Shown piece by piece: positions 38,919-47,116 of a stretch of DNA of 64,000 bases (positions are counted from its first letter, which is position 1; each line of letters starts with the position of its first letter). The stretch lies in NCBI RefSeq assembly GCF_003790525.1, contig NZ_CP033635.1; one strand, 5' to 3'. The notes below the pieces were generated by a model. The model had not been told where the DNA came from and made no database searches. It saw only the letters and a list, made by a program, of their open reading frames with translations. The translations under genes and the position numbers were made by a program. This stretch comes from Escherichia coli. GTDB lineage: Bacteria > Pseudomonadota > Gammaproteobacteria > Enterobacterales > Enterobacteriaceae.

Positions 38919-39284
38919 ATGATTGATGTCTTAGGGCCGGAGAAACGCAGACGGCGTACCACACAGGAAAAGATCGCAATTGTTCAGCAGAGTTTTGAAC
39001 CGGGAATGACGGTCTCCCTTGTAGCCCGGCAACACGGTGTGGCAGCCAGCCAGCTATTTCTCTGGCGCAAGCAATACCAGGAGGGAAGTCTTACTGCTGT
39101 GGCCGCAGGAGAACAGGTCGTTCCTGCCTCTGAACTTGCTGCTGCCATGAAGCAGATTAAAGAACTCCAGCGCCTGCTCGGCAAAAAAACGATGGAAAAT
39201 GAACTCCTCAAAGAAGCCGTTGAATATGGACGGGCAAAAAAGTGGATAGCGCACGCGCCCTTATTGCCCGGGGATGGGGAGTAA
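38919..39284 (+). CDS. insC: IS2 transposase OrfA (InsC)
   Basis: [41 protein letters not shown]..., 121 aa. The slippery AAAAAAG is at 39236-39242. Confidence 0.93.
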
Positions 39285-40147
39285 GCTTAGTCAGCCGTTG
39301 TCTCCGGGTGTCGCGTGCGCAGTTGCACGTCATTCTCAGACGAACCGATGACTGGATGGATGGCCGCCGCAGTCGTCACACTGATGATACGGATGTGCTT
39401 CTCCGTATACACCATGTTATCGGAGAGCTGCCCACGTATGGTTATCGTCGGGTATGGGCGCTGCTTCGCAGACAGGCAGAACTTGATGGTATGCCTGCGA
39501 TCAATGCCAAACGTGTTTACCGGATCATGCGCCAGAATGCGCTGTTGCTTGAGCGAAAACCTGCTGTACCGCCATCGAAACGGGCACATACAGGCAGAGT
39601 GGCTGTGAAAGAAAGTAATCAGCGATGGTGCTCTGACGGGTTCGAGTTCCGCTGTGATAACGGAGAAAAACTGCGAGTCACGTTCGCGCTGGACTGCTGT
39701 GACCGTGAGGCACTGCACTGGGCGGTCACTACGGGCGGCTTCAACAGTGAAACAGTACAGGACGTCATGCCAGGAGCGGTGGAACGCCGCTTCGGCAACG
39801 ATCTTCCGGCGTCTCCAGTAGAGTGGCTGACGGATAATGGTTCATGCTACCGGGCTAATGAAACACGGCAGTTTGCCCGGATGTTGGGGCTTGAACCGAA
39901 GAGCACGGCGGTGCGGAGTCCGGAGAGTAACGGCATAGCAGAGAGCTTCGTGAAAACGATAAAGCGTGACTACATCAGTATCATGCCTAAACCAGACGGG
40001 TTAACGGCAGCAAAGAACCTTGCAGAGGCGTTCGAGCATTATAACGAATGGCATCCGCATAGTGCACTGGGTTATCGCTCGCCACGGGAATATCTGCGGC
40101 AGCAGGCCAGTAATGGGTTAAGTGATAACAGGTGTCTGGAAATATAG
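39242..40147 (+). CDS. insD: IS2 transposase OrfB (InsD; made as an OrfAB fusion by -1 frameshift)
   Basis: 301-aa ORF with a DDE integrase-core domain (…WCSDGFEF…TDNGSCY…NGIAESF…). Confidence 0.93.
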
Positions 40148-40485: not shown

Positions 40486-41211
40486 CTGTACCGGGCAATG
40501 GGTAATACCGGTCACAACCGGTAACCCCAGAGACAATGCAACTGTTTTTAACGCAATATACTGGCCGGATGTATCACCCCGGGCAGCCTGAAAACACCTT
40601 TCCACCCGGCATTGTCCGTCAGCACTTATCACCCGCCATGTCTGTTGCAATAAATCCACCCGTTGCGAACATTCTTCATCAACCGTGGCACTGACCCGTG
40701 GATGGCAAATGCTCGTCTGGCTGAGCAGCAACAGGCATCGCATTGTTGCTCCTCCATGTTGTTCCCGCAACCAGCGTAATACCACCGGTGGTGCTGGACT
40801 GGCCGTGTGATTACGTTCAGTAATACGCTCGTGCACCTGTCGGTAAAAGGAAGTACAGAATGCATGAATCTGTTGTCCGTTGATGTTTCCTTCTGCCGAA
40901 TGGAGTGTGAAGTGGACGGCCAGCAGACGCGGCCAGTGATCCACCGCCTGCTGAATAAAACGCCGGATTTCCACCGGCTCTGAAAGTACGGTTTCGGTTA
41001 TTTGCACGATTTGATCCCCTTGAATGTTGCTGAACCGGTGTCGGTACGCAGGAAAGCACGCCGAGACCGGTACGATGCCTGTTACAGCGAAGAACGAGGA
41101 ATGACAGACGGGGGCAGCAGGTCGCCAGCACCAGGGACAGGGCTGATTTCCACAATACCAACGCTGGTATTTTGCACATTGCCAGCGTACCGGCATTACA
41201 ACACGTTTCAT
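40474..41211 (-). CDS. inovirus-Gp2-like (YagK/YfjJ family) protein, paralog 1
   Basis: The segment ...EIRRFIQQAVDHWPRLLAVHFTLHSAEG...FYRQVHERI... is YfjJ/YagK-like. The ATG at 41211 forms an ATGA overlap with the alpA stop. The Cys/Trp-rich first ~60 codons and the C-terminus next to the IS256 remnant make both ends uncertain. Confidence 0.55.
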   Translation of the reverse strand: MKRVVMPVRWQCAKYQRWYCGNQPCPWCWRPAAPVCHSSFFAVTGIVPVSACFPAYRHRFSNIQGDQIVQITETVLSEPVEIRRFIQQAVDHWPRLLAVHFTLHSAEGNINGQQIHAFCTSFYRQVHERITERNHTASPAPPVVLRWLREQHGGATMRCLLLLSQTSICHPRVSATVDEECSQRVDLLQQTWRVISADGQCRVERCFQAARGDTSGQYIALKTVALSLGLPVVTGITHCPVQRCT

Positions 41212-41444
41212 GCTGCTGCCCCTCGTGATGCCTCGATTCGTTGCTGCATCCACTGCTCCACTTCACTTTTGTACCAGCGGCTGCTGCGCCCCAGTTTGAT
41301 GGGTTTAGGGAAATGGCCTTCACTGATCAGCTTGTAAAACCATTTGTCGGTCATACCAGTGAAGCTGGTGATGTAGTTCATGTCGATCAGGGGATCGTCG
41401 GCACGCAGCAATACGCTGTCGTGACCTGTCATTGAGGTCAACAT
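41208..41444 (-). CDS. alpA: AlpA-family transcriptional regulator / excisionase-like
   Basis: 78 aa. ITSFTGMTDKWFYKLISEGHFPKPIKLGRSSRWYKSEVEQWM is the AlpA/phage_AlpA helix-turn-helix signature. The start could be an internal Met. Confidence 0.85.
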   Translation of the reverse strand: MLTSMTGHDSVLLRADDPLIDMNYITSFTGMTDKWFYKLISEGHFPKPIKLGRSSRWYKSEVEQWMQQRIEASRGAAA

Positions 41445-41512: not shown

Positions 41513-42115
41513 TCAGAGCTGGCCTGCTACGGGATACCAGGGATTACCGGCGAGGTAACGGGCTTCCGGATCGCGCACACCACGACGATCGCGGGCGAAA
41601 TCACTGAACGCCCATATCAGCTCTTTGAGTCTCTCTTCGCAGTCCGGTGAACAACTGTCCAGCACCACATCCCGGGTTATCTGTTTCTGGTACGGTGCCG
41701 CTTCACCCGGTGAGGCGAAGCCCAGCACGTTGCTCCAGGCATCCAGAATCAGCCGATCCAGTTCAGGGCCGTCGAAATACTCCTGCCTGACGCACAGCAC
41801 CACGTGGTATTCCGGCTTTTCAGGATGACGTGTCAGGAGCCAGCAGAGGTCACGTCCGGGGGTTGCATTCATCAGGTCACTGACGGTTTCAATAAAGGCC
41901 ATACCGAACCAGGTCCTGCGGCTGCTGAAGGTATTATCGGGTTCCCACGGCAGACGAAGCAGGATACGTCGTATCCGGGAGCCGGACTGCTCACGCAGCG
42001 CACGGTCAAGAACGCCAATAACTTTGTTCTGATACGAGGGCCAGAAGGGTGCCATGCTGTCGTCGAAATAAGAGAAAGTATTCACAGGATATGCTCCGTT
42101 ATGCGCAGCCCACAA
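41513..42115 (-). CDS. inovirus-Gp2-like (YagK/YfjJ family) protein, paralog 2
   Basis: 200 aa. ...RRILLRLPWEPD...YHVVLCVRQEYF... follows the same pattern as paralogs 1 and 3. Confidence 0.6.
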   Translation of the reverse strand: MWAAHNGAYPVNTFSYFDDSMAPFWPSYQNKVIGVLDRALREQSGSRIRRILLRLPWEPDNTFSSRRTWFGMAFIETVSDLMNATPGRDLCWLLTRHPEKPEYHVVLCVRQEYFDGPELDRLILDAWSNVLGFASPGEAAPYQKQITRDVVLDSCSPDCEERLKELIWAFSDFARDRRGVRDPEARYLAGNPWYPVAGQL

Positions 42116-42417
42116 CGCGTCCTGCCCGGGGATGGATGGGCTGACGGGTTACAGGCTGCGGATGAGGTTGATGGAACAGGTGAAGAACCGACGCTGAGCG
42201 GGAATATCAGGGAAGAACATTCAGGGTGAATGAACTCCGTTGACTTCGGTTCACATCATTAAGCAGGGCGGTAAGGTTTTACCGACAGATTGTTTCCGGG
42301 TGCGGAAGCAGATACCGCTGCTGACTTCATGACGGGTTATCAGAATACGGGATAAGGGCATTGGCTGACTCTCTTACCGTGGCATAAGTTCAGGTACCGG
42401 ATACCGTTTTACCGACC

Positions 42418-43149
42418 TCACCTGCCATCCAGCAAACGCCCCGGCCCACGGCTGCAACCATAATTACGCTGACCGGAACCATTATGCTGCTTCGTTTTAT
42501 TTTTCACGAGATAACTGGCTCTGTTCCTGGCTTTCTGCATCGCTGCCACATCACCACGCTTGATCCAGAGAACAGCGGCTTCACCCGGCTTTTTTTCTGA
42601 AGCCTTCCTGGTATCAGAACATCCACCCGACAAAGGCGTGTCATCGGAAGAAGGGCGAGCATCAGACGATGCTGGTTTACGAAAAGGCTTCCACCTGGAA
42701 AAATGGACCAGGCCATCGCCTTGCCAGGGCTCAAGATGCAGAGCGCTGCACCATGCCTCCTGGATCATCGCCGCCAGCGAAGACGGTTCGCTGAAATCCC
42801 CGAGCGAGCACCAGGTATCTTTGTTGAGCAGCAATATCACGTGATAATGTTTCCTGTTTTCTTCCTCTCCGAACTCCCGGCACCAGAAATAACGCAGGCT
42901 GGTTGCATGCACACGCTGACTGGCACGTCGCTTATGCTGCTGGTAAGCCTGGATTTTGGCTTTCAGGGATTCGAAAAAACGAGAAATCACCGCTGAATCC
43001 GGATCGGGATCCATGATGGTGACAGGCATATACTCAGGGAAACGTAAATCCACCCGGATTAACGAGACGGCACGGTGCTGCGACAGGGCACTGTCGAGAA
43101 GGCTGTCAAAACGGGATAACCAGTAAGCATTGTGTATTGGTTGATTCAT
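42418..43149 (-). CDS. inovirus-Gp2-like (YagK/YfjJ family) protein, paralog 3
   Basis: 243 aa. ...VSLIRVDLRFPEY...RYFWCREFGEEENRKHYHVILLLNKD... is the family core. Confidence 0.7.
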   Translation of the reverse strand: MNQPIHNAYWLSRFDSLLDSALSQHRAVSLIRVDLRFPEYMPVTIMDPDPDSAVISRFFESLKAKIQAYQQHKRRASQRVHATSLRYFWCREFGEEENRKHYHVILLLNKDTWCSLGDFSEPSSLAAMIQEAWCSALHLEPWQGDGLVHFSRWKPFRKPASSDARPSSDDTPLSGGCSDTRKASEKKPGEAAVLWIKRGDVAAMQKARNRASYLVKNKTKQHNGSGQRNYGCSRGPGRLLDGR

Positions 43150-44722
43150 GATGAGAGATCTCCGTTGATTTGGATTGACTTCACATCATTAATCACCGCG
43201 GTAAAACTTTACGGCATCATGTCATTAAGCAATGCTACAACTCTCTGATTAAGAGTGATTGAAACGGAACAAACCATCCCGGAACGAAAAGATAATCCTG
43301 CACACAGCAGCAAAACACGCAACAACAGCATGAATGGATTTAAAAACGACATGGACGACGAGAAAAGCCTGAAGGGAAAAGGATCCACAGAACATTCGAA
43401 CAAAACACCAGAAACGCAACCAGAACGCTTCCTGGCAATGCAAATCAACAACAACACCAAAACCTACAGCTTAATCACACAACTCAATCACGAATGCGAA
43501 TGACACGTTTAAAACCTGTTTACAGATAACGTCGTAACAAGATCATCCCCATCAGAATCGATTTTCTTATCTTGAGTATGTTACTTTTCAACATACCTAA
43601 ACGATTAACCACCGATAACGTAAATCTCATCTGAATCAAAACACCAAAACCAATCATCACGTTTTCGACAGAAGAAAAACACCACATCATGACAAAAAGA
43701 ATGACCTTACACGGAAAAGAAAAACGTCAGGAATCGTTAATGCATACCTCAATCTGATTGTTATCAAAACATCCAGAAAGTCGTTTAACAGAATCGTCGT
43801 AAGCACATCGAAAAGAACGTCAGATCACCTCAGGAAAGTTCGGGTTGATTTAGCGTAAAGATACTTTTCTCAGCTTAACGTCGAAACACAAACCAAAAAC
43901 CACAAACAACCAAAGCTCAGGAAAGGTTAAACGTCACATCAGTAAAATCGAATAGCAGATTGATTGCTTAAACAGGAAGGATTGTTTTACAGCAGCATTA
44001 AACTGATTTAGTTAACGTAAAATCAGAACTGACAGGTTTACTAACTTGGATGTGTATCAGTTCAAAAATGTGTACAGCAATGCGTAATGAAACACATTTA
44101 AAGGAGATTAATGGGAAAAGTGTGTAAATGCGTAAACATGCACTAATGAATCACTGAAGGAATACATACAAAACGACTTAATGAAAACATAAAAGGACCT
44201 AATGGAAAAGGTGTATATAATACCATATCCGACATTCTCAACATCTTAAGACATCCATGCAGACTGAATGTTGGTTTCAGTTTTTCACGGTAAGCATGAA
44301 TCTTTTCTGTTCAAAAGCAGAGCAGATTTACTCTGGAATTATTTTTCTTACTCCGTATTCTGTACAGCAAAAACTTGTGCTAACTTTACAGCAAACCATC
44401 ATAATCAGCGTCTGTAGTCCCATCGCTTTACCCCATGAAAGTGAATCCATATGATGCGAGAGAGATAAGTCATCGTATCCGGTAAACACTGCTAACCATA
44501 ACATAAGATCATTCAGTCAGTTTTATCTCTGAACTGACGATTATGGCATGCTCATTTATATGGCTCACAGAGGAGTGTTATTATCTGTAAGCTTTAATCA
44601 TCAAATCACATGACCATACCAAACTGGCGCTATATCAGCTCATTTGACACCCCTTCCCTTTAGATTTCTTTATGTGTTTTTTGTCGATAATTAAAATGTA
44701 ATATGAATTTAATATTTTTACA

Positions 44723-45946
44723 TCATAAACACCATTTAAAACCATTATCCTGAACATCATACAACAATATATTTTTACTAAAGCATGAATTGTATATTTC
44801 TATTAATTCAGGAAAATTATCAGGATTCACCTTTAAATTCACCTGAATGTTACGCCTAATTTCACCCAGCAGTTTTTCATGCGTGAATTTTATTATTTCT
44901 TTATCATAATCTATAAATTCACACATGTTTTTTATGAATTCAAACCCTTTTCCTGTATACAGTTTGATGAATGCCACAAGAGCAAACATTTCAAGATGCA
45001 GCCATAATGCCACGTGAGTTTTTCGCAAAGTATAAAAAATTGAATTCACCTCTTTTTTACTTATTGCTCTTTTGTACTGTGAGTGTGCCAGATTCAGTAG
45101 TGGCAATTCTCTCTCGATAAATGAAAGTGAAAAAGGCGGGTAAATTGATGTCGGAAATATTTTAGGTCTTATGATATTTTCTATTTCCACCATAAATCTA
45201 TCCATAGAAAGAAAATCATTTTCTTTTTTTATTCTGGTATAGAGACCGCCTTTATTTCTTACTGCGACTTTTTTTCGTGCTACCCCCCCCAACACTTCCT
45301 CTAATTGTTTATTTATCTTCGTATCATTAAATACAACCATTCTTCTTATCATCCTGGGAAGGATGATAATATCAGAGCTTGAATCACTTGAACGGTAATT
45401 ATTATTGATCCATGCAACTTCAAGTTGAAGTATCGGAACATTAAATTCTCTGGGGTTAATAACTCTCTGATATTGTTTTTTGTATGCGTTTTTATTAAGA
45501 TATTCTCTGCTGTAGAGAAACTTATAGCAATATAATCTGACAATATCCTTTATGTAAGATTTAAATGAGTCACCTGTAACAGATATATTTTTTCTGCTCA
45601 GTAACTCCTGTGTATTGAGCCATTCCCGTGACCGGAGTACTCCCTTATGAAGACTTTTTCTTACTTGCATTGAACTGCGCAATTGATGTAATATTTTTGC
45701 GTCCTCAACAATTCTCTTTCCCGTTTGATTTCTTGCAGCATCTATTACTCTGTCAAATATCTCCCGGTCCAGACTTTTGTCATATTTACTGATTATACGA
45801 CAAATATTCCTGACCCGACGGTTCTCTTTATTTCGTTTCCATAACTGATAATGATCATCACATAACCTCAGGGCATTTGCCTCATCAAATTCTGAAACAG
45901 GATTGCTGCATTTTTTATTCCGACAGATACCTTTGTTTTTAGCCAT
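44723..45946 (-). CDS. orphan 407-aa protein with an N-terminal CCCH-type zinc-finger-like motif; function unknown
   Basis: Long uninterrupted ORF in a markedly AT-rich segment. The N-terminus is GICRNKKCSNPVSEFDEANALRLCDDHY (C-x4-C-x15-C-x2-H). The rest is Lys/Ile/Asn-rich and predicted helical. I recognise no family. Confidence 0.6.
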   Translation of the reverse strand: MAKNKGICRNKKCSNPVSEFDEANALRLCDDHYQLWKRNKENRRVRNICRIISKYDKSLDREIFDRVIDAARNQTGKRIVEDAKILHQLRSSMQVRKSLHKGVLRSREWLNTQELLSRKNISVTGDSFKSYIKDIVRLYCYKFLYSREYLNKNAYKKQYQRVINPREFNVPILQLEVAWINNNYRSSDSSSDIIILPRMIRRMVVFNDTKINKQLEEVLGGVARKKVAVRNKGGLYTRIKKENDFLSMDRFMVEIENIIRPKIFPTSIYPPFSLSFIERELPLLNLAHSQYKRAISKKEVNSIFYTLRKTHVALWLHLEMFALVAFIKLYTGKGFEFIKNMCEFIDYDKEIIKFTHEKLLGEIRRNIQVNLKVNPDNFPELIEIYNSCFSKNILLYDVQDNGFKWCL

Positions 45947-46046
45947 ACTCTTCTTCCCGTCAATGGAAAATTTTTCACGTCCATATTACCTGACTGAGAG
46001 ACCGGATTAATGTGATCCGGTTCAGTGAAATCAACAGGATACCGGT

Positions 46047-46931
46047 ATGTCATTCAGCCATTCTTCCCTTTCCGCACACGTAAAATCACATCTGACCTTT
46101 CTTCCTGAAGAAATACGCCAGAAAATCCTTGAATATCTTCACAGCGTCATTCAGTACGAACCCGTGATTGGCATTATGGGTAAATCCGGTGCCGGAAAAA
46201 GCAGCCTGTGCAATGCCATTTTTCAGTCCCGTGTCTGCGCCACGCATCCACTGAACGGCTGCACCCGTCAGGCTCATCGTCTTACCTTTCAGCCTGGTGA
46301 ACGCAGAATGACGCTCGTCGATCTGCCCGGCACTGGCGAAACACCACAGCATGATCAGGAATACCGGGCACTTTACCGTCAGTTACTGCCCGAACTGGAT
46401 CTGATTATCTGGATCCTGCGTGCTGATGAACGTGCGTATGCTGCCGACATCGCCATGCATCAGTTTTTACTGAATGAAGGTGCCGATCCCTCGCGTTTTC
46501 TGTTTGTTCTCAGCCATGCTGATCGCATCCACCCGGCTGAAGAATGGAACAGCCAGAGCAACACGCCATCCCGTCAGCAGGAACTCTCACTGGCAACAGT
46601 AACAGCCCGGGTGGCAACCCTGTTCCCTTCATCATTTCCGGTACTCCCCATAGCTGCCCCTGCAGGCTGGAATCTTCCGGCATTTGTGTCACTGATGATC
46701 CACGCCCTGCCACCACAGGCAACCAGCACGGTTTATTCGCATATCCGGAATGAAAAGCGCACTGCGCAGGATCAGCAACACGCACAGCAGGCTTTTGGTG
46801 ACGCCATCGGCCAGAGCTTTGACGCGGCCATTGCCCGGTTCAGCTTTCCGGCCTGGATGCTGCAGCTTCTGCGTAAAGCCCGTGATCGCATTATCCGCCT
46901 GCTGGTCACACTGTGGGATCGCCTGTTCTGA
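46047..46931 (+). CDS. YeeP/YfjP/YkfA-type GTPase (50S ribosome-binding GTPase family), intact
   Basis: 294 aa with a P-loop GIMGKSGAGKSSLCNAIF and a DLPG switch. This is the typical first gene of the CP4-type conserved module. Confidence 0.85.
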   Translation: MSFSHSSLSAHVKSHLTFLPEEIRQKILEYLHSVIQYEPVIGIMGKSGAGKSSLCNAIFQSRVCATHPLNGCTRQAHRLTFQPGERRMTLVDLPGTGETPQHDQEYRALYRQLLPELDLIIWILRADERAYAADIAMHQFLLNEGADPSRFLFVLSHADRIHPAEEWNSQSNTPSRQQELSLATVTARVATLFPSSFPVLPIAAPAGWNLPAFVSLMIHALPPQATSTVYSHIRNEKRTAQDQQHAQQAFGDAIGQSFDAAIARFSFPAWMLQLLRKARDRIIRLLVTLWDRLF

Positions 46932-47116
46932 ATTTCCCCGCTTTTTGACCGGCACAGACGATGACCAGGGAACGCATTTCCGGCGGCTTTACCACAATGC
47001 TGAAGGGCTTTTGGTAAACCTCATTCATTTCATCCATCAGGCAGCGTCTTCTCCGGGAGATGCGGCTTTTTCATTGATTACGTCAGTCAGTCTTAACCAC
47101 TGATAAGGAGCAAAGT

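Follow-up and report, generated by a model that had tools for sequence, protein, structure and literature searches.

An AT-rich orphan gene in an exchangeable cassette of CP4-type islands of Escherichia coli belongs to a zinc-finger family of apparent HNH nuclease ancestry

The locus studied here raises the question of what a long, AT-rich gene without a recognizable relative does inside a genomic island whose other genes are familiar. The 64,000-nucleotide stretch of E. coli DNA that we analyzed (the window) has the backbone of the CP4-57-, CP4-44- and CP4-6-type islands, namely, the YfjP/YeeP/YkfA GTPase, YafZ/DUF932, KlcA-type antirestriction, RadC-like, CbtA/CbeA, AlpA and YagK/YfjJ genes, and the gene lies inside it. 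On the K-12 maps, other genes are presumably found upstream of the GTPase gene, rnlAB in CP4-57 and flu in CP4-44. An earlier note had regarded the gene as cargo inserted into a conserved backbone position and had guessed, from context, at a role in defense or anti-defense. The locus is organized as follows, with positions given within the window.

41208..41444, minus strand: AlpA-family regulator gene (tblastn synteny; Pfam Phage_AlpA on the neighbors of homologues)
42418..43149, minus strand: YagK/YfjJ gene ('inovirus Gp2 family', Rep-like; Pfam YagK_YfjJ_C, E 1.9e-37; REP_ORF2-G2P, E 2.3e-7)
43150..44345: non-coding tract of the conserved backbone, separating the Gp2-like gene from the cassette
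44346..45970: exchangeable cassette delimited by blastn breakpoints (1.6 kb, comprising a leader of ~23 nt, the ORF and 377 bp of 3′ flank)
44723..45946, minus strand: 407-aa ORF (cassette type A) with an ATG start, a longer upstream start being impossible
45947..46046: divergent control region of 100 bp between the 407-aa ORF and the GTPase gene, with putative promoter function
46047..46931, plus strand: YeeP/YfjP-type GTPase gene (Pfam MMR_HSR1, E 1.4e-14; annotation of homologous loci; synteny across genera)

The 407-aa ORF is a real, conserved gene under constraint. It is uninterrupted and differs in composition from the flanking genes, as the earlier note had seen: its GC content is 33.5% compared with 54.1% for the GTPase gene, and over positions 44500 to 46000 the values are 0.30 to 0.37 as opposed to 0.50 to 0.60 in the flanking genes. 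The purine-rich stretch GGGAAGAAGAG is located 2 nt 5′ of its ATG. The 99.8%-identical record NZ_AP038236.1 has a CDS annotated at the ORF, and copies that are nearly identical, such as WP_042039149.1 in this record, are listed by RefSeq as 'hypothetical protein'. The exact protein occurs on 174 contigs, and the type A gene was found in 974 of 5426 complete E. coli genomes. At least 80% of the gene length was matched in 967 of the 974 carrier genomes. The dN/dS ratio relative to the UTI89 allele is 0.30, with values of 0.10 to 0.31 for neighboring genes. The encoded protein is strongly basic (pI 9.7, net charge +28). Its family has no K-12 name and no Pfam family, and we found no literature on it; searches by protein accession, by the names of the GTPase and YfjJ, and for work on leading regions and genomic islands returned nothing about the 407-aa gene.

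The arrangement of the gene was also as described. The ORF diverges from the GTPase gene across a spacer of exactly 100 bp (45947-46046) and is followed by 1573 bp (43150-44722) devoid of ORFs longer than 83 aa. The latter region is non-coding, because its indels relative to the UTI89 counterpart are not multiples of three. Most of it belongs to the backbone: the tract at 43150..44345, which is T/G-rich on the ORF-sense strand, is 78 to 83% identical in all E. coli cassette variants, with blocks of 91 to 95% identity at ~43400-43650. No Rfam family matched within 42000-47000, and no meaningful repeats were detected in the tract or the cassette. In Salmonella a tract of equal size also follows the gene, and it shares no nucleotide similarity with that of E. 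coli.

The 407-aa gene is the first leftward-transcribed gene from a conserved divergent control region. This region separates the AlpA and Gp2-like (Rep-like) module from the operon that begins with the GTPase gene and continues with DUF932, antirestriction, RadC and CbeA-CbtA genes. It contains two conspicuous elements.

45981-45990, both strands: conserved decamer CCATATTACC / GGTAATATGG, -10-like on both strands
46002-46020: palindrome CCGGAT-n7-ATCCGG, within the 100-bp control region

The sequence GGTAATAT is identical in the control regions of E. coli, Klebsiella and Citrobacter, and at the position equivalent to the palindrome Citrobacter has a different one, CCTGGC-n7-GCCAGG. A simple consensus scan for promoters and terminators called no promoter in the control region and found nothing above background. 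From the GTPase start to position 45971 (~96 bp), the DNA is near-identical in islands of types A, B and D. As the control region is the same across cassette types, no co-variation of operator and regulator is visible.

A survey of the equivalent slot in related islands, which the earlier note had suggested, revealed at least four cassette types with identical breakpoints in E. coli. In blastn comparisons of the window with loci L011, L012, L016, L017 and L018, similarity was lost at 44344-44357 and regained at 45970/71, the right-hand breakpoint being seen also in alignment A7; the exchanged segment starts ~12 nt downstream of the -10-like element that is common to the variants. The flanks of the slot are common to five other E. 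coli island variants, with 78 to 89% identity. At least four different cassettes (A, B, C and D), all of them AT-rich, occupy the slot. Remote homology links cassettes A, B and C, and alleles are ~20% identical between flanks that are 88 to 89% identical, which suggests diversifying or balancing selection. The type C cassette protein has no zinc finger. Type D cassettes contain no member of the family, indicating that the protein is dispensable for island maintenance; the type D protein and the partner protein of type C belong to a family unrelated to A, B and C. We considered the type D protein as a hidden member of the 407-aa protein's family and rejected this idea (hhalign probability 0.1%). 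Among complete E. coli genomes, 974 carry cassette A, 463 cassette B and 742 cassette C, counts that may overlap.

Beyond E. coli, the family is small, unnamed and restricted to Enterobacterales, with no more than 43 clusters at 50% identity among 1.84 billion proteins. Searching species-representative genomes with patterns including YNSCFS yielded only 3 loci, tblastn found no homologue among plasmids or phages, and word-index searches from alignments recovered the distant clade poorly. Family members hold the same slot in Klebsiella, Citrobacter, Salmonella and Atlantibacter, where the gene is divergent from the GTPase gene and upstream of AlpA and Gp2-like genes; in Klebsiella and Citrobacter only ~320 bp separate it from AlpA. 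In distant relatives from Providencia, the gene and AlpA overlap by 8 nt, which amounts to translational coupling. The AlpA gene is never more than 2 genes away from the family member. In every host the family has a GC content of 30 to 37%, so that low GC is no mark of a recent insertion, and the AT-richness that had been read as a sign of inserted cargo loses that meaning. The cargo proposal itself held in part: the backbone position is a sharply bounded, variable slot with at least four cassettes, but the occupants are homologous rather than arbitrary. The homology of A, B and C and the presence of the family in the slot across genera argue for a hypervariable backbone gene and not for random cargo.

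The 407-aa protein consists of an N-terminal CCCH zinc finger, a predicted central beta-beta-alpha core that apparently derives from an H-N-N HNH nuclease, and a C-terminal helical YNSxFS domain, encoded as follows.

45851..45925, minus strand (codons 8-32): CCCH zinc-finger motif C8-x4-C13-x15-C29-x2-H32
45290..45430, minus strand (codons 173-219): putative degenerate HNH (beta-beta-alpha) core, LEVAW179 ... D192IIILP ... IR201RMV
44777..44794, minus strand (codons 385-390): YNSCFS family signature in the C-terminal helical domain

Conservation was assessed on 28 family members, which are 15 to 37% identical to the window protein outside its E. coli type. The zinc-finger motif, noticed initially as a C-x4-C-x15-C-x2-H pattern, is conserved far above chance: C8 and C29 never vary in this set, C13 and H32 show a conservation of at least 90%, all four ligands are invariant in a 10-sequence alignment of the clade, and the motif is kept in every family clade that has an N-terminus. 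Between types A and B, the N-terminal zinc finger is the best-conserved stretch. It is modeled with a pLDDT of 82 to 91 across residues 1 to 40, and we predict a treble-clef-like module that binds zinc and nucleic acid, a prediction to which the net charge of the protein lends support. In the C-terminal signature, all 28 sequences have Y385, and conservation reaches at least 90% for N386 and F389. Down to 15 to 20% identity, W109, L138-Y139, P197, P282, R293, E319 and Y385 are retained together with the full-length architecture.

Remote homology suggests that the family descended from HNH nucleases. An alignment of the window clade (A1) with a motif-intact clade (A3) extended over the full length (hhalign probability 99.84%, E 3.5e-30, 365 columns). 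The latter clade has the motif LExCHxYPNSxGGxNxxxNxIIAPxxINR, in which the H, N and N are invariant. W179, D192 and R201 of the window protein align to these residues, which correspond to the catalytic, structural and metal-ligand positions; at position 179, other members of the window clade have W, F, Y or K, and the catalytic residues are lost in both the E. coli A and B clades. As W179, D192 and R201 replace H, N and N, the protein is predicted to be nuclease-dead. In PHROGs, 9 of 13 members of the motif-intact clade matched phrog_1271 (best E 8e-8), and phrog_8660 was matched with an E value of 8.8e-7, both being phage HNH endonuclease families. At the motif, distant relatives scored 13 to 17 bits with Pfam HNH_4 and HNH_5, below the cut-offs of 22 and 27.5 bits. 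A fragment of the SpCas9 HNH domain, in an approximate sequence, aligned without gaps to the distant clade with H, N and N in register, which we take as a lead only. The statement that the protein has no obvious nuclease signature is therefore correct for the window sequence by itself and does not extend to its family, which probably derives from HNH nucleases. Relative to H-N-N HNH endonucleases (HNH_4, PF13395, Cas9-like; HNH_5, PF14279; phrog_8660; phrog_1271), of which the distant clade has the intact motif and the window protein is its full-length homologue, the latter differs by W179/D192/R201, by the absence of a match to any HNH model, and by ~190 additional C-terminal residues.

Direct searches with the window protein were negative. 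It had no family match in Pfam, HNH included, its best hit being sub-threshold noise (Tex_central_region, E 0.072); the sole HNH family found in PHROGs was phrog_5351 (E 0.65, residues 22-57); with NCBIfam, rSAM_yydG scored 18 bits for a cut-off of 300; and PDB sequences gave no match for the protein or for the A2 and A3 profiles. An AlphaFold2 model (pLDDT 78.7) shows strands at 175-179 and 193-197 and a helix at 198-219, with pLDDT values of 81 to 92 there. Fold searches with it returned no HNH structure and no structural relative, including for the ~190-residue C-terminal helical domain; an earlier model from the 10-sequence alignment (pLDDT 61) was left out of the fold search. We also came across the label 'Reverse transcriptase' on one UniRef100 entry, homologue P0016, and rejected it, since the other named cluster members are called 'hypothetical protein'. 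An RVT family is absent from the 25 most frequent of the 31 Pfam families matched by the 28 members, P0016 among them.

How might such a protein act? We tentatively favor a regulator or specificity factor that binds nucleic acid without catalysis and serves the AlpA/Rep-like module of the island. Presumably incapable of cutting DNA, the 407-aa protein would set the state or the specificity of this life-cycle module; its conserved zinc finger and its basic N-terminal two-thirds would contact nucleic acid, and the remainder, which diverges fast, would make contacts that differ between alleles, such as those with a factor from the host, a phage or a plasmid. That the zinc finger is the best-conserved part between alleles is what one would expect if the alleles shared a nucleic-acid target but differed in the surfaces that face their partners. 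This interpretation is weakened by the absence of operator co-variation, by islands of type D that lack the family, by the type C protein that lacks the zinc finger, and by an HNH ancestry traced only through remote homology. A sharply bounded polymorphic slot is, moreover, also typical of a defense hotspot. On that reading, which we regard as somewhat unlikely, the slot would be a hotspot of diversity, and its protein would act alone as an effector against phages or plasmids, or else as a decoy or inhibitor that shields the island on entry through contact with nucleic acid or with a protein of the phage or the host. Identical breakpoints, four or more AT-rich cassettes, the unrelated family represented by the type C partner and type D, and the selection suggested by alleles that diverge between similar flanks would all suit such a role, as would the antirestriction, RadC and CbtA/CbeA genes of the adjoining operon and the fact that HNH ancestry is common among defense nucleases. 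Defense hotspots such as those of P4-type satellites likewise lie in mobile elements beside antirestriction and toxin-antitoxin genes and combine fixed breakpoints with several unrelated, AT-rich one- or two-gene cassettes; in contrast, three of the four cassette types here and the occupants in other genera form one family, without a match to a defense model. That one family holds the slot across genera and sits in the AlpA operon in Providencia is unexpected for opportunistic cargo. No model of PADLOC-DB v2.0.0 (2023) matched the window protein, types B, C and D, the type C partner, P0016, P0030 or P0049, that is, any of the slot or other-genus proteins scanned, and the 407-aa protein has no recognizable second effector domain. 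With the sole recognizable enzymatic module inactivated as well, the original guess of defense or anti-defense gained no positive evidence.

The proximity of the gene to AlpA and YagK/YfjJ (REP_ORF2-G2P) genes, at most 2 genes away in all cases, could instead reflect an accessory role in replication or transfer, which we consider unlikely. The protein would recognize an ori or oriT in the adjoining non-coding DNA and work with the Gp2-like protein and AlpA, the HNH-intact relatives nicking and the dead versions binding or bending DNA. The coupling of an HNH-intact homologue to AlpA in Providencia and the long conserved tract 3′ of the gene in E. coli, with its same-size counterpart in Salmonella, are in keeping with this role, and we take the rightward operon (antirestriction, DUF932, RadC) to resemble plasmid leading-region gene sets. 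However, the tract is backbone, and the protein next to it is replaced by versions that are unrelated or share only 20% identity, so that target and protein do not co-vary; the tract has no iterons or notable repeats, and the gene-to-AlpA distance in Klebsiella and Citrobacter is short. We know of no HNH-type relaxase or replication initiator. The loss of the catalytic motif, the islands of type D without the gene, and an AT-richness that probably entails silencing might even suggest a functionless, decaying remnant of an HNH gene, kept by linkage to the island alone. This is highly improbable given the dN/dS ratio, the uninterrupted frame in the window, the near-complete gene in nearly all carriers, and the many non-catalytic residues (W109 to Y385) retained with the full-length architecture at low identity.

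Returning to a regulatory function, the family could conceivably be a hypervariable master switch of CP4-type islands, which we regard as a long shot. A zinc-finger/dead-HNH protein would restrain the AlpA/Rep-like module by means of a conserved head that binds nucleic acid, and alleles A, B and C would each have a releasing protein of their own, from a phage, a plasmid or the host, in the manner of Stl in SaPIs, which would explain the cassette polymorphism. The SaPI Stl and lambdoid cI cassettes, taken here as functional analogies, likewise place one hypervariable gene in a sharp-bordered cassette at the divergence point of two operons. The 407-aa protein differs from them in having neither an HTH domain nor homology, and in that the shared promoter region is invariant to the allele.

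Few accessory elements in E. coli and related bacteria are as widespread as the CP4-type islands, whose genes include virulence, resistance and toxin-antitoxin functions. Adding up the carriers of A, B and C, with possible overlap, the family described here reaches roughly one third of the complete E. coli genomes. What was an orphan ORF is now a defined target: a protein with a zinc finger and an apparently inactivated HNH core, encoded in a cassette with fixed borders and with motif-intact relatives in AlpA operons. The gene may represent a regulator of islands of a new type or else a new locus of conflict, in defense or anti-defense, and its product would be an example of a nuclease scaffold put to non-catalytic use. 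If the master-switch proposal were true, it would provide the first handle on the induction and movement of these common 'cryptic prophage' islands.

The 407-aa ORF and the features around it lie in the window as follows.

39242-40147, IS3-family transposase ORF (301 aa), directly upstream of the AlpA/YagK-YfjJ module
42418..43149, minus strand, YagK/YfjJ "inovirus Gp2 family" gene, the next gene beyond the 407-aa ORF
44723..45946, minus strand, 407-aa ORF with an ATG start
46047..46931, plus strand, GTPase gene of the YeeP/YfjP type (MMR_HSR1, E = 1.4e-14)

An ORF scan showed that no upstream extension of the 407-aa ORF is possible, and a Shine-Dalgarno-like purine-rich stretch is found just 5′ of it. 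The GC content falls to 0.30 to 0.37 over 44500-46000, compared with 0.50 to 0.60 on either flank (33.5% for the ORF against 54.1% for the adjoining GTPase gene). The two genes diverge from a spacer of exactly 100 bp. On the other side, the 1573 bp separating the ORF from the Gp2-like gene contain no ORF longer than 83 aa and differ from their UTI89 counterpart by indels whose lengths are not multiples of three. The protein carries the motif C8-x4-C13-x15-C29-x2-H32. The ORF itself, its low GC content, the 100-bp divergence, the ORF-poor tract and the CCCH motif had all been described in the earlier note and are borne out here. The GTPase gives a weak PADLOC match over residues 183-286 (E = 1.2e-6) to LeoBC, a dynamin-like component of a candidate defense system. 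In a near-identical strain, the left part of the island holds IS1 and IS256 remnants and the resistance genes sul2, aph(3'')-Ib and aph(6)-Id; together with the IS3-family ORF in the window, this indicates that the left arm of the island is mosaic.

The 3-kb region is 99.8% identical to that of E. coli strain HCM-24C-3, whose annotation lists the ORF as hypothetical protein WP_042039149.1 within a CP4-type island, i.e., with AlpA, YagK/YfjJ, GTPase, DUF932, antirestriction, RadC, DUF987, CbeA/CbtA, DUF5983, DUF957 and DUF4942 genes. Of 5426 complete E. coli genomes, 974 contain the ORF, and in 967 of these carriers, UTI89 among them, the match covers at least 80% of its length. The exact protein is recorded on 174 contigs, always named "hypothetical" or "uncharacterized". 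Relative to the UTI89 allele (90.4% nucleotide and 85.3% amino acid identity), dN/dS is 0.30 for the ORF, 0.31 for the Gp2-like gene, 0.21 for the GTPase gene and 0.10 for the DUF932 gene. From the carrier counts, protein records and dN/dS, the ORF is therefore a protein-coding gene under purifying selection.

The protein has no significant match in Pfam, NCBIfam, PHROGs, PADLOC or PDB sequences, and a literature search by protein and accessions found no mention of it. Homologues are very few: a word-index search of 5.8 billion proteins returned 16 matches, and an exhaustive profile search of 1.84 billion representatives yielded 43 clusters at 50% identity. The named hosts are E. coli, Salmonella enterica, Klebsiella and Citrobacter species, Atlantibacter, Providencia and one unclassified Enterobacteriaceae strain; tblastn detected no family homologue in plasmids or phages. 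One further homologue-bearing assembly is labeled Chryseobacterium sp. 18061, but its neighborhood is of the Enterobacteriaceae type and, in match coordinates and tblastn scores, its locus closely resembles that of Enterobacteriaceae bacterium RIT691; contamination or mislabeling is likely. The Klebsiella michiganensis homologue P0016 (locus L002, 10001-11257) bears the name "Reverse transcriptase", which comes from one UniRef100 entry and looks erroneous, as no RT domain is detectable and the other named cluster members are called "hypothetical protein".

Conservation was assessed on 28 members; apart from those of its own E. coli type, they share 15 to 37% identity with the window protein. 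Of the zinc-finger ligands, C8 and C29 never vary, and C13 and H32 are conserved in at least 90% of the sequences; W109, L138-Y139, L175, P197, P282, L286, R293, E319 and Y385-N386-x-x-F389 are also conserved. The window protein has a net charge of +28 (pI 9.7), with the excess wholly within residues 1-310. The Salmonella Typhimurium homologue (locus L020, 8001-9398) has two tandem N-terminal CCCH fingers, the first resembling that of the type B cassette described below and the second that of the window protein, which suggests recombination between alleles.

Evidence for an HNH ancestry of the family comes from a set of 13 distantly related sequences, among them those of Providencia rettgeri and P. 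stuartii, which form a clade of their own and possess a second Cys-rich finger and the invariant motif LExCHxYPNSxGGxNxxxNxIIAPxxINR. Matches to phrog_1271 (HNH endonuclease) were returned for nine of the 13, the best at E = 8e-8, and one matches phrog_8660, also an HNH endonuclease, over residues 31-201 (E = 8.8e-7). Pfam HNH_4 and HNH_5 are recurrent, sub-threshold best matches precisely at the motif. As a lead only, an SpCas9 HNH fragment aligned without gaps, with H/N/N in register (E = 0.022). The window and distant clades are homologous over their full length (hhalign probability 99.84%, E = 3.5e-30). In this alignment, the H/N/N positions correspond to W179, D192 and R201 of the window protein, and to W/F/Y/K, D and R across its clade. 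An AlphaFold2 model built from 17 sequences (pLDDT 78.7, pTM 0.66) places strands at 175-179 and 193-197 and a helix at 198-219, a predicted beta-beta-alpha arrangement at the motif site. Homology thus marks the window protein as a zinc-finger protein on an HNH scaffold, predicted to be no longer able to catalyze cleavage. H-N-N type HNH endonucleases are its nearest defined relatives, but it departs from their catalytic criteria and should be described as an inactivated HNH derivative rather than an HNH endonuclease.

For many E. coli GTPase loci, the match to the window begins only at 45970/71. In each of five such loci that were examined, the similarity to the window (78 to 89%) is lost between 44344-44357 and 45970/71, and this slot holds one of at least four cassettes, all AT-rich.

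Cassette types in the E. coli slot
Type A: 407-aa gene; 974 genomes
Type B: 376-aa gene, same strand as type A; 463 genomes
Type C: 316-aa homologue and convergent 262-aa gene; 742 genomes, 498 full-length
Type D: unrelated 344/345-aa gene, opposite strand; 74 genomes

The type B protein has the zinc finger and a C-terminal YNSFF motif in common with the family, and hhalign identifies it as a remote homologue (97% over the N-terminal 130 residues); the family profile also matches its relatives P0040, P0045, P0046 and P0048, in three cases almost from end to end. The type C 316-aa protein is homologous to the family core but lacks the zinc finger (hhalign 95%). The type D protein is distantly related to the type C partner, and they form a second, uncharacterized slot family of 262 to 345 aa, found in three comparison loci.

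L017, 2736-3524, plus strand
L012, 4835-5869, plus strand
L016, 3396-4433, plus strand

The 262-aa member matches the two longer ones by BLASTP at E = 2e-4 to 3e-5, and the latter are 60% identical to each other. This family, without Pfam or PADLOC match, is placed alone (type D) or convergent to the zinc-finger-less homologue (type C).

In K. michiganensis, Citrobacter, Salmonella Typhimurium and Atlantibacter, homologues of 23 to 35% identity occupy the same island position, divergent from the GTPase gene across a spacer of about 93 to 100 bp. AlpA and YagK/YfjJ-type genes then follow on the same strand; beyond the GTPase gene come those for DUF932, antirestriction and RadC proteins. The motif-intact Providencia homologue overlaps the AlpA stop codon by 8 nt and faces an operon ending in antirestriction and DUF932 genes. 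The GC content of the homologues is 30 to 37% everywhere, against 53 to 54% for the adjoining GTPase genes, making low GC a family trait rather than a sign of recent insertion. The earlier note had read the gene as cargo in a conserved backbone position; the slot exists and its borders are sharp, but its occupant is not arbitrary cargo. As one family fills it in several genera, and as alleles of that family make up three of the four E. coli cassettes, this is a hypervariable backbone gene.

About 96 bp, from the GTPase start to 45971, are common to types A, B and D. They include the decamer GGTAATATGG (45981-45990), identical in E. coli, Klebsiella and Citrobacter, which gives a -10-like hexamer on both strands. 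The exchanged segment thus starts about 12 nt downstream of this common element, a putative promoter component, although a simple promoter scan called no promoter in the control region. The common stretch also contains the palindrome CCGGAT-n7-ATCCGG (46002-46020), which precedes the GTPase start by 27 to 45 nt. The corresponding alignment position in Citrobacter is taken by another palindrome, CCTGGC-n7-GCCAGG, and the difference looks compensatory. Between the cassette and the Gp2-like gene, the 1.2-kb tract 43150-44345 is non-coding backbone, 78 to 83% conserved in all E. coli island variants with blocks of 91 to 95% around 43400-43650. Its base composition is strongly strand asymmetric (37% T and 16% C on the ORF-sense strand), and it has no Rfam match; a long 5′ UTR, an origin, an oriT or an RNA are candidate roles. 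Salmonella has a tract of the same size (1.6 kb) in the same place (L020, 9399-10996) without nucleotide similarity to that of E. coli.

The reading we favor, tentatively, is that the AlpA/Rep-like module is controlled, or given its specificity, by this protein, which would act as a nucleic-acid-binding factor without catalytic activity. Binding would rest on the conserved zinc finger and the basic N-terminal two-thirds, and the fast-diverging remainder of the protein would make allele-specific contacts. The location of the gene at a divergent control region, its coupling to AlpA and the conservation of the finger between alleles argue for such a regulator, as does the retention of the whole architecture under purifying selection despite the apparent loss of catalysis. 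However, type D islands manage without the family, and the shared control region leaves no co-variation between the putative regulator and operator. In functional terms, the nearest parallels come from phage-related islands, in their master repressors and immunity cassettes (SaPI Stl, lambdoid cI), a likeness limited to position and variability.

A defense or anti-defense cassette, as guessed in the earlier note, appears less likely: sharp-bordered polymorphic slots are typical of conflict loci, but the guess has gained no positive support, none of the slot proteins scanned matched a PADLOC model, and the sole enzymatic module is an inactivated one. It is unlikely that the protein is an ori or oriT accessory factor working with the Gp2-like protein, since changes in the protein are not mirrored in the tract, of which Klebsiella and Citrobacter have only a short version. 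That the gene is a functionless remnant is contradicted by both dN/dS and conservation and is very improbable. What makes the finding moderately interesting is that the family is common in E. coli, lies at the control point of islands that are poorly understood as a class, and now offers a well-defined target for experiment.
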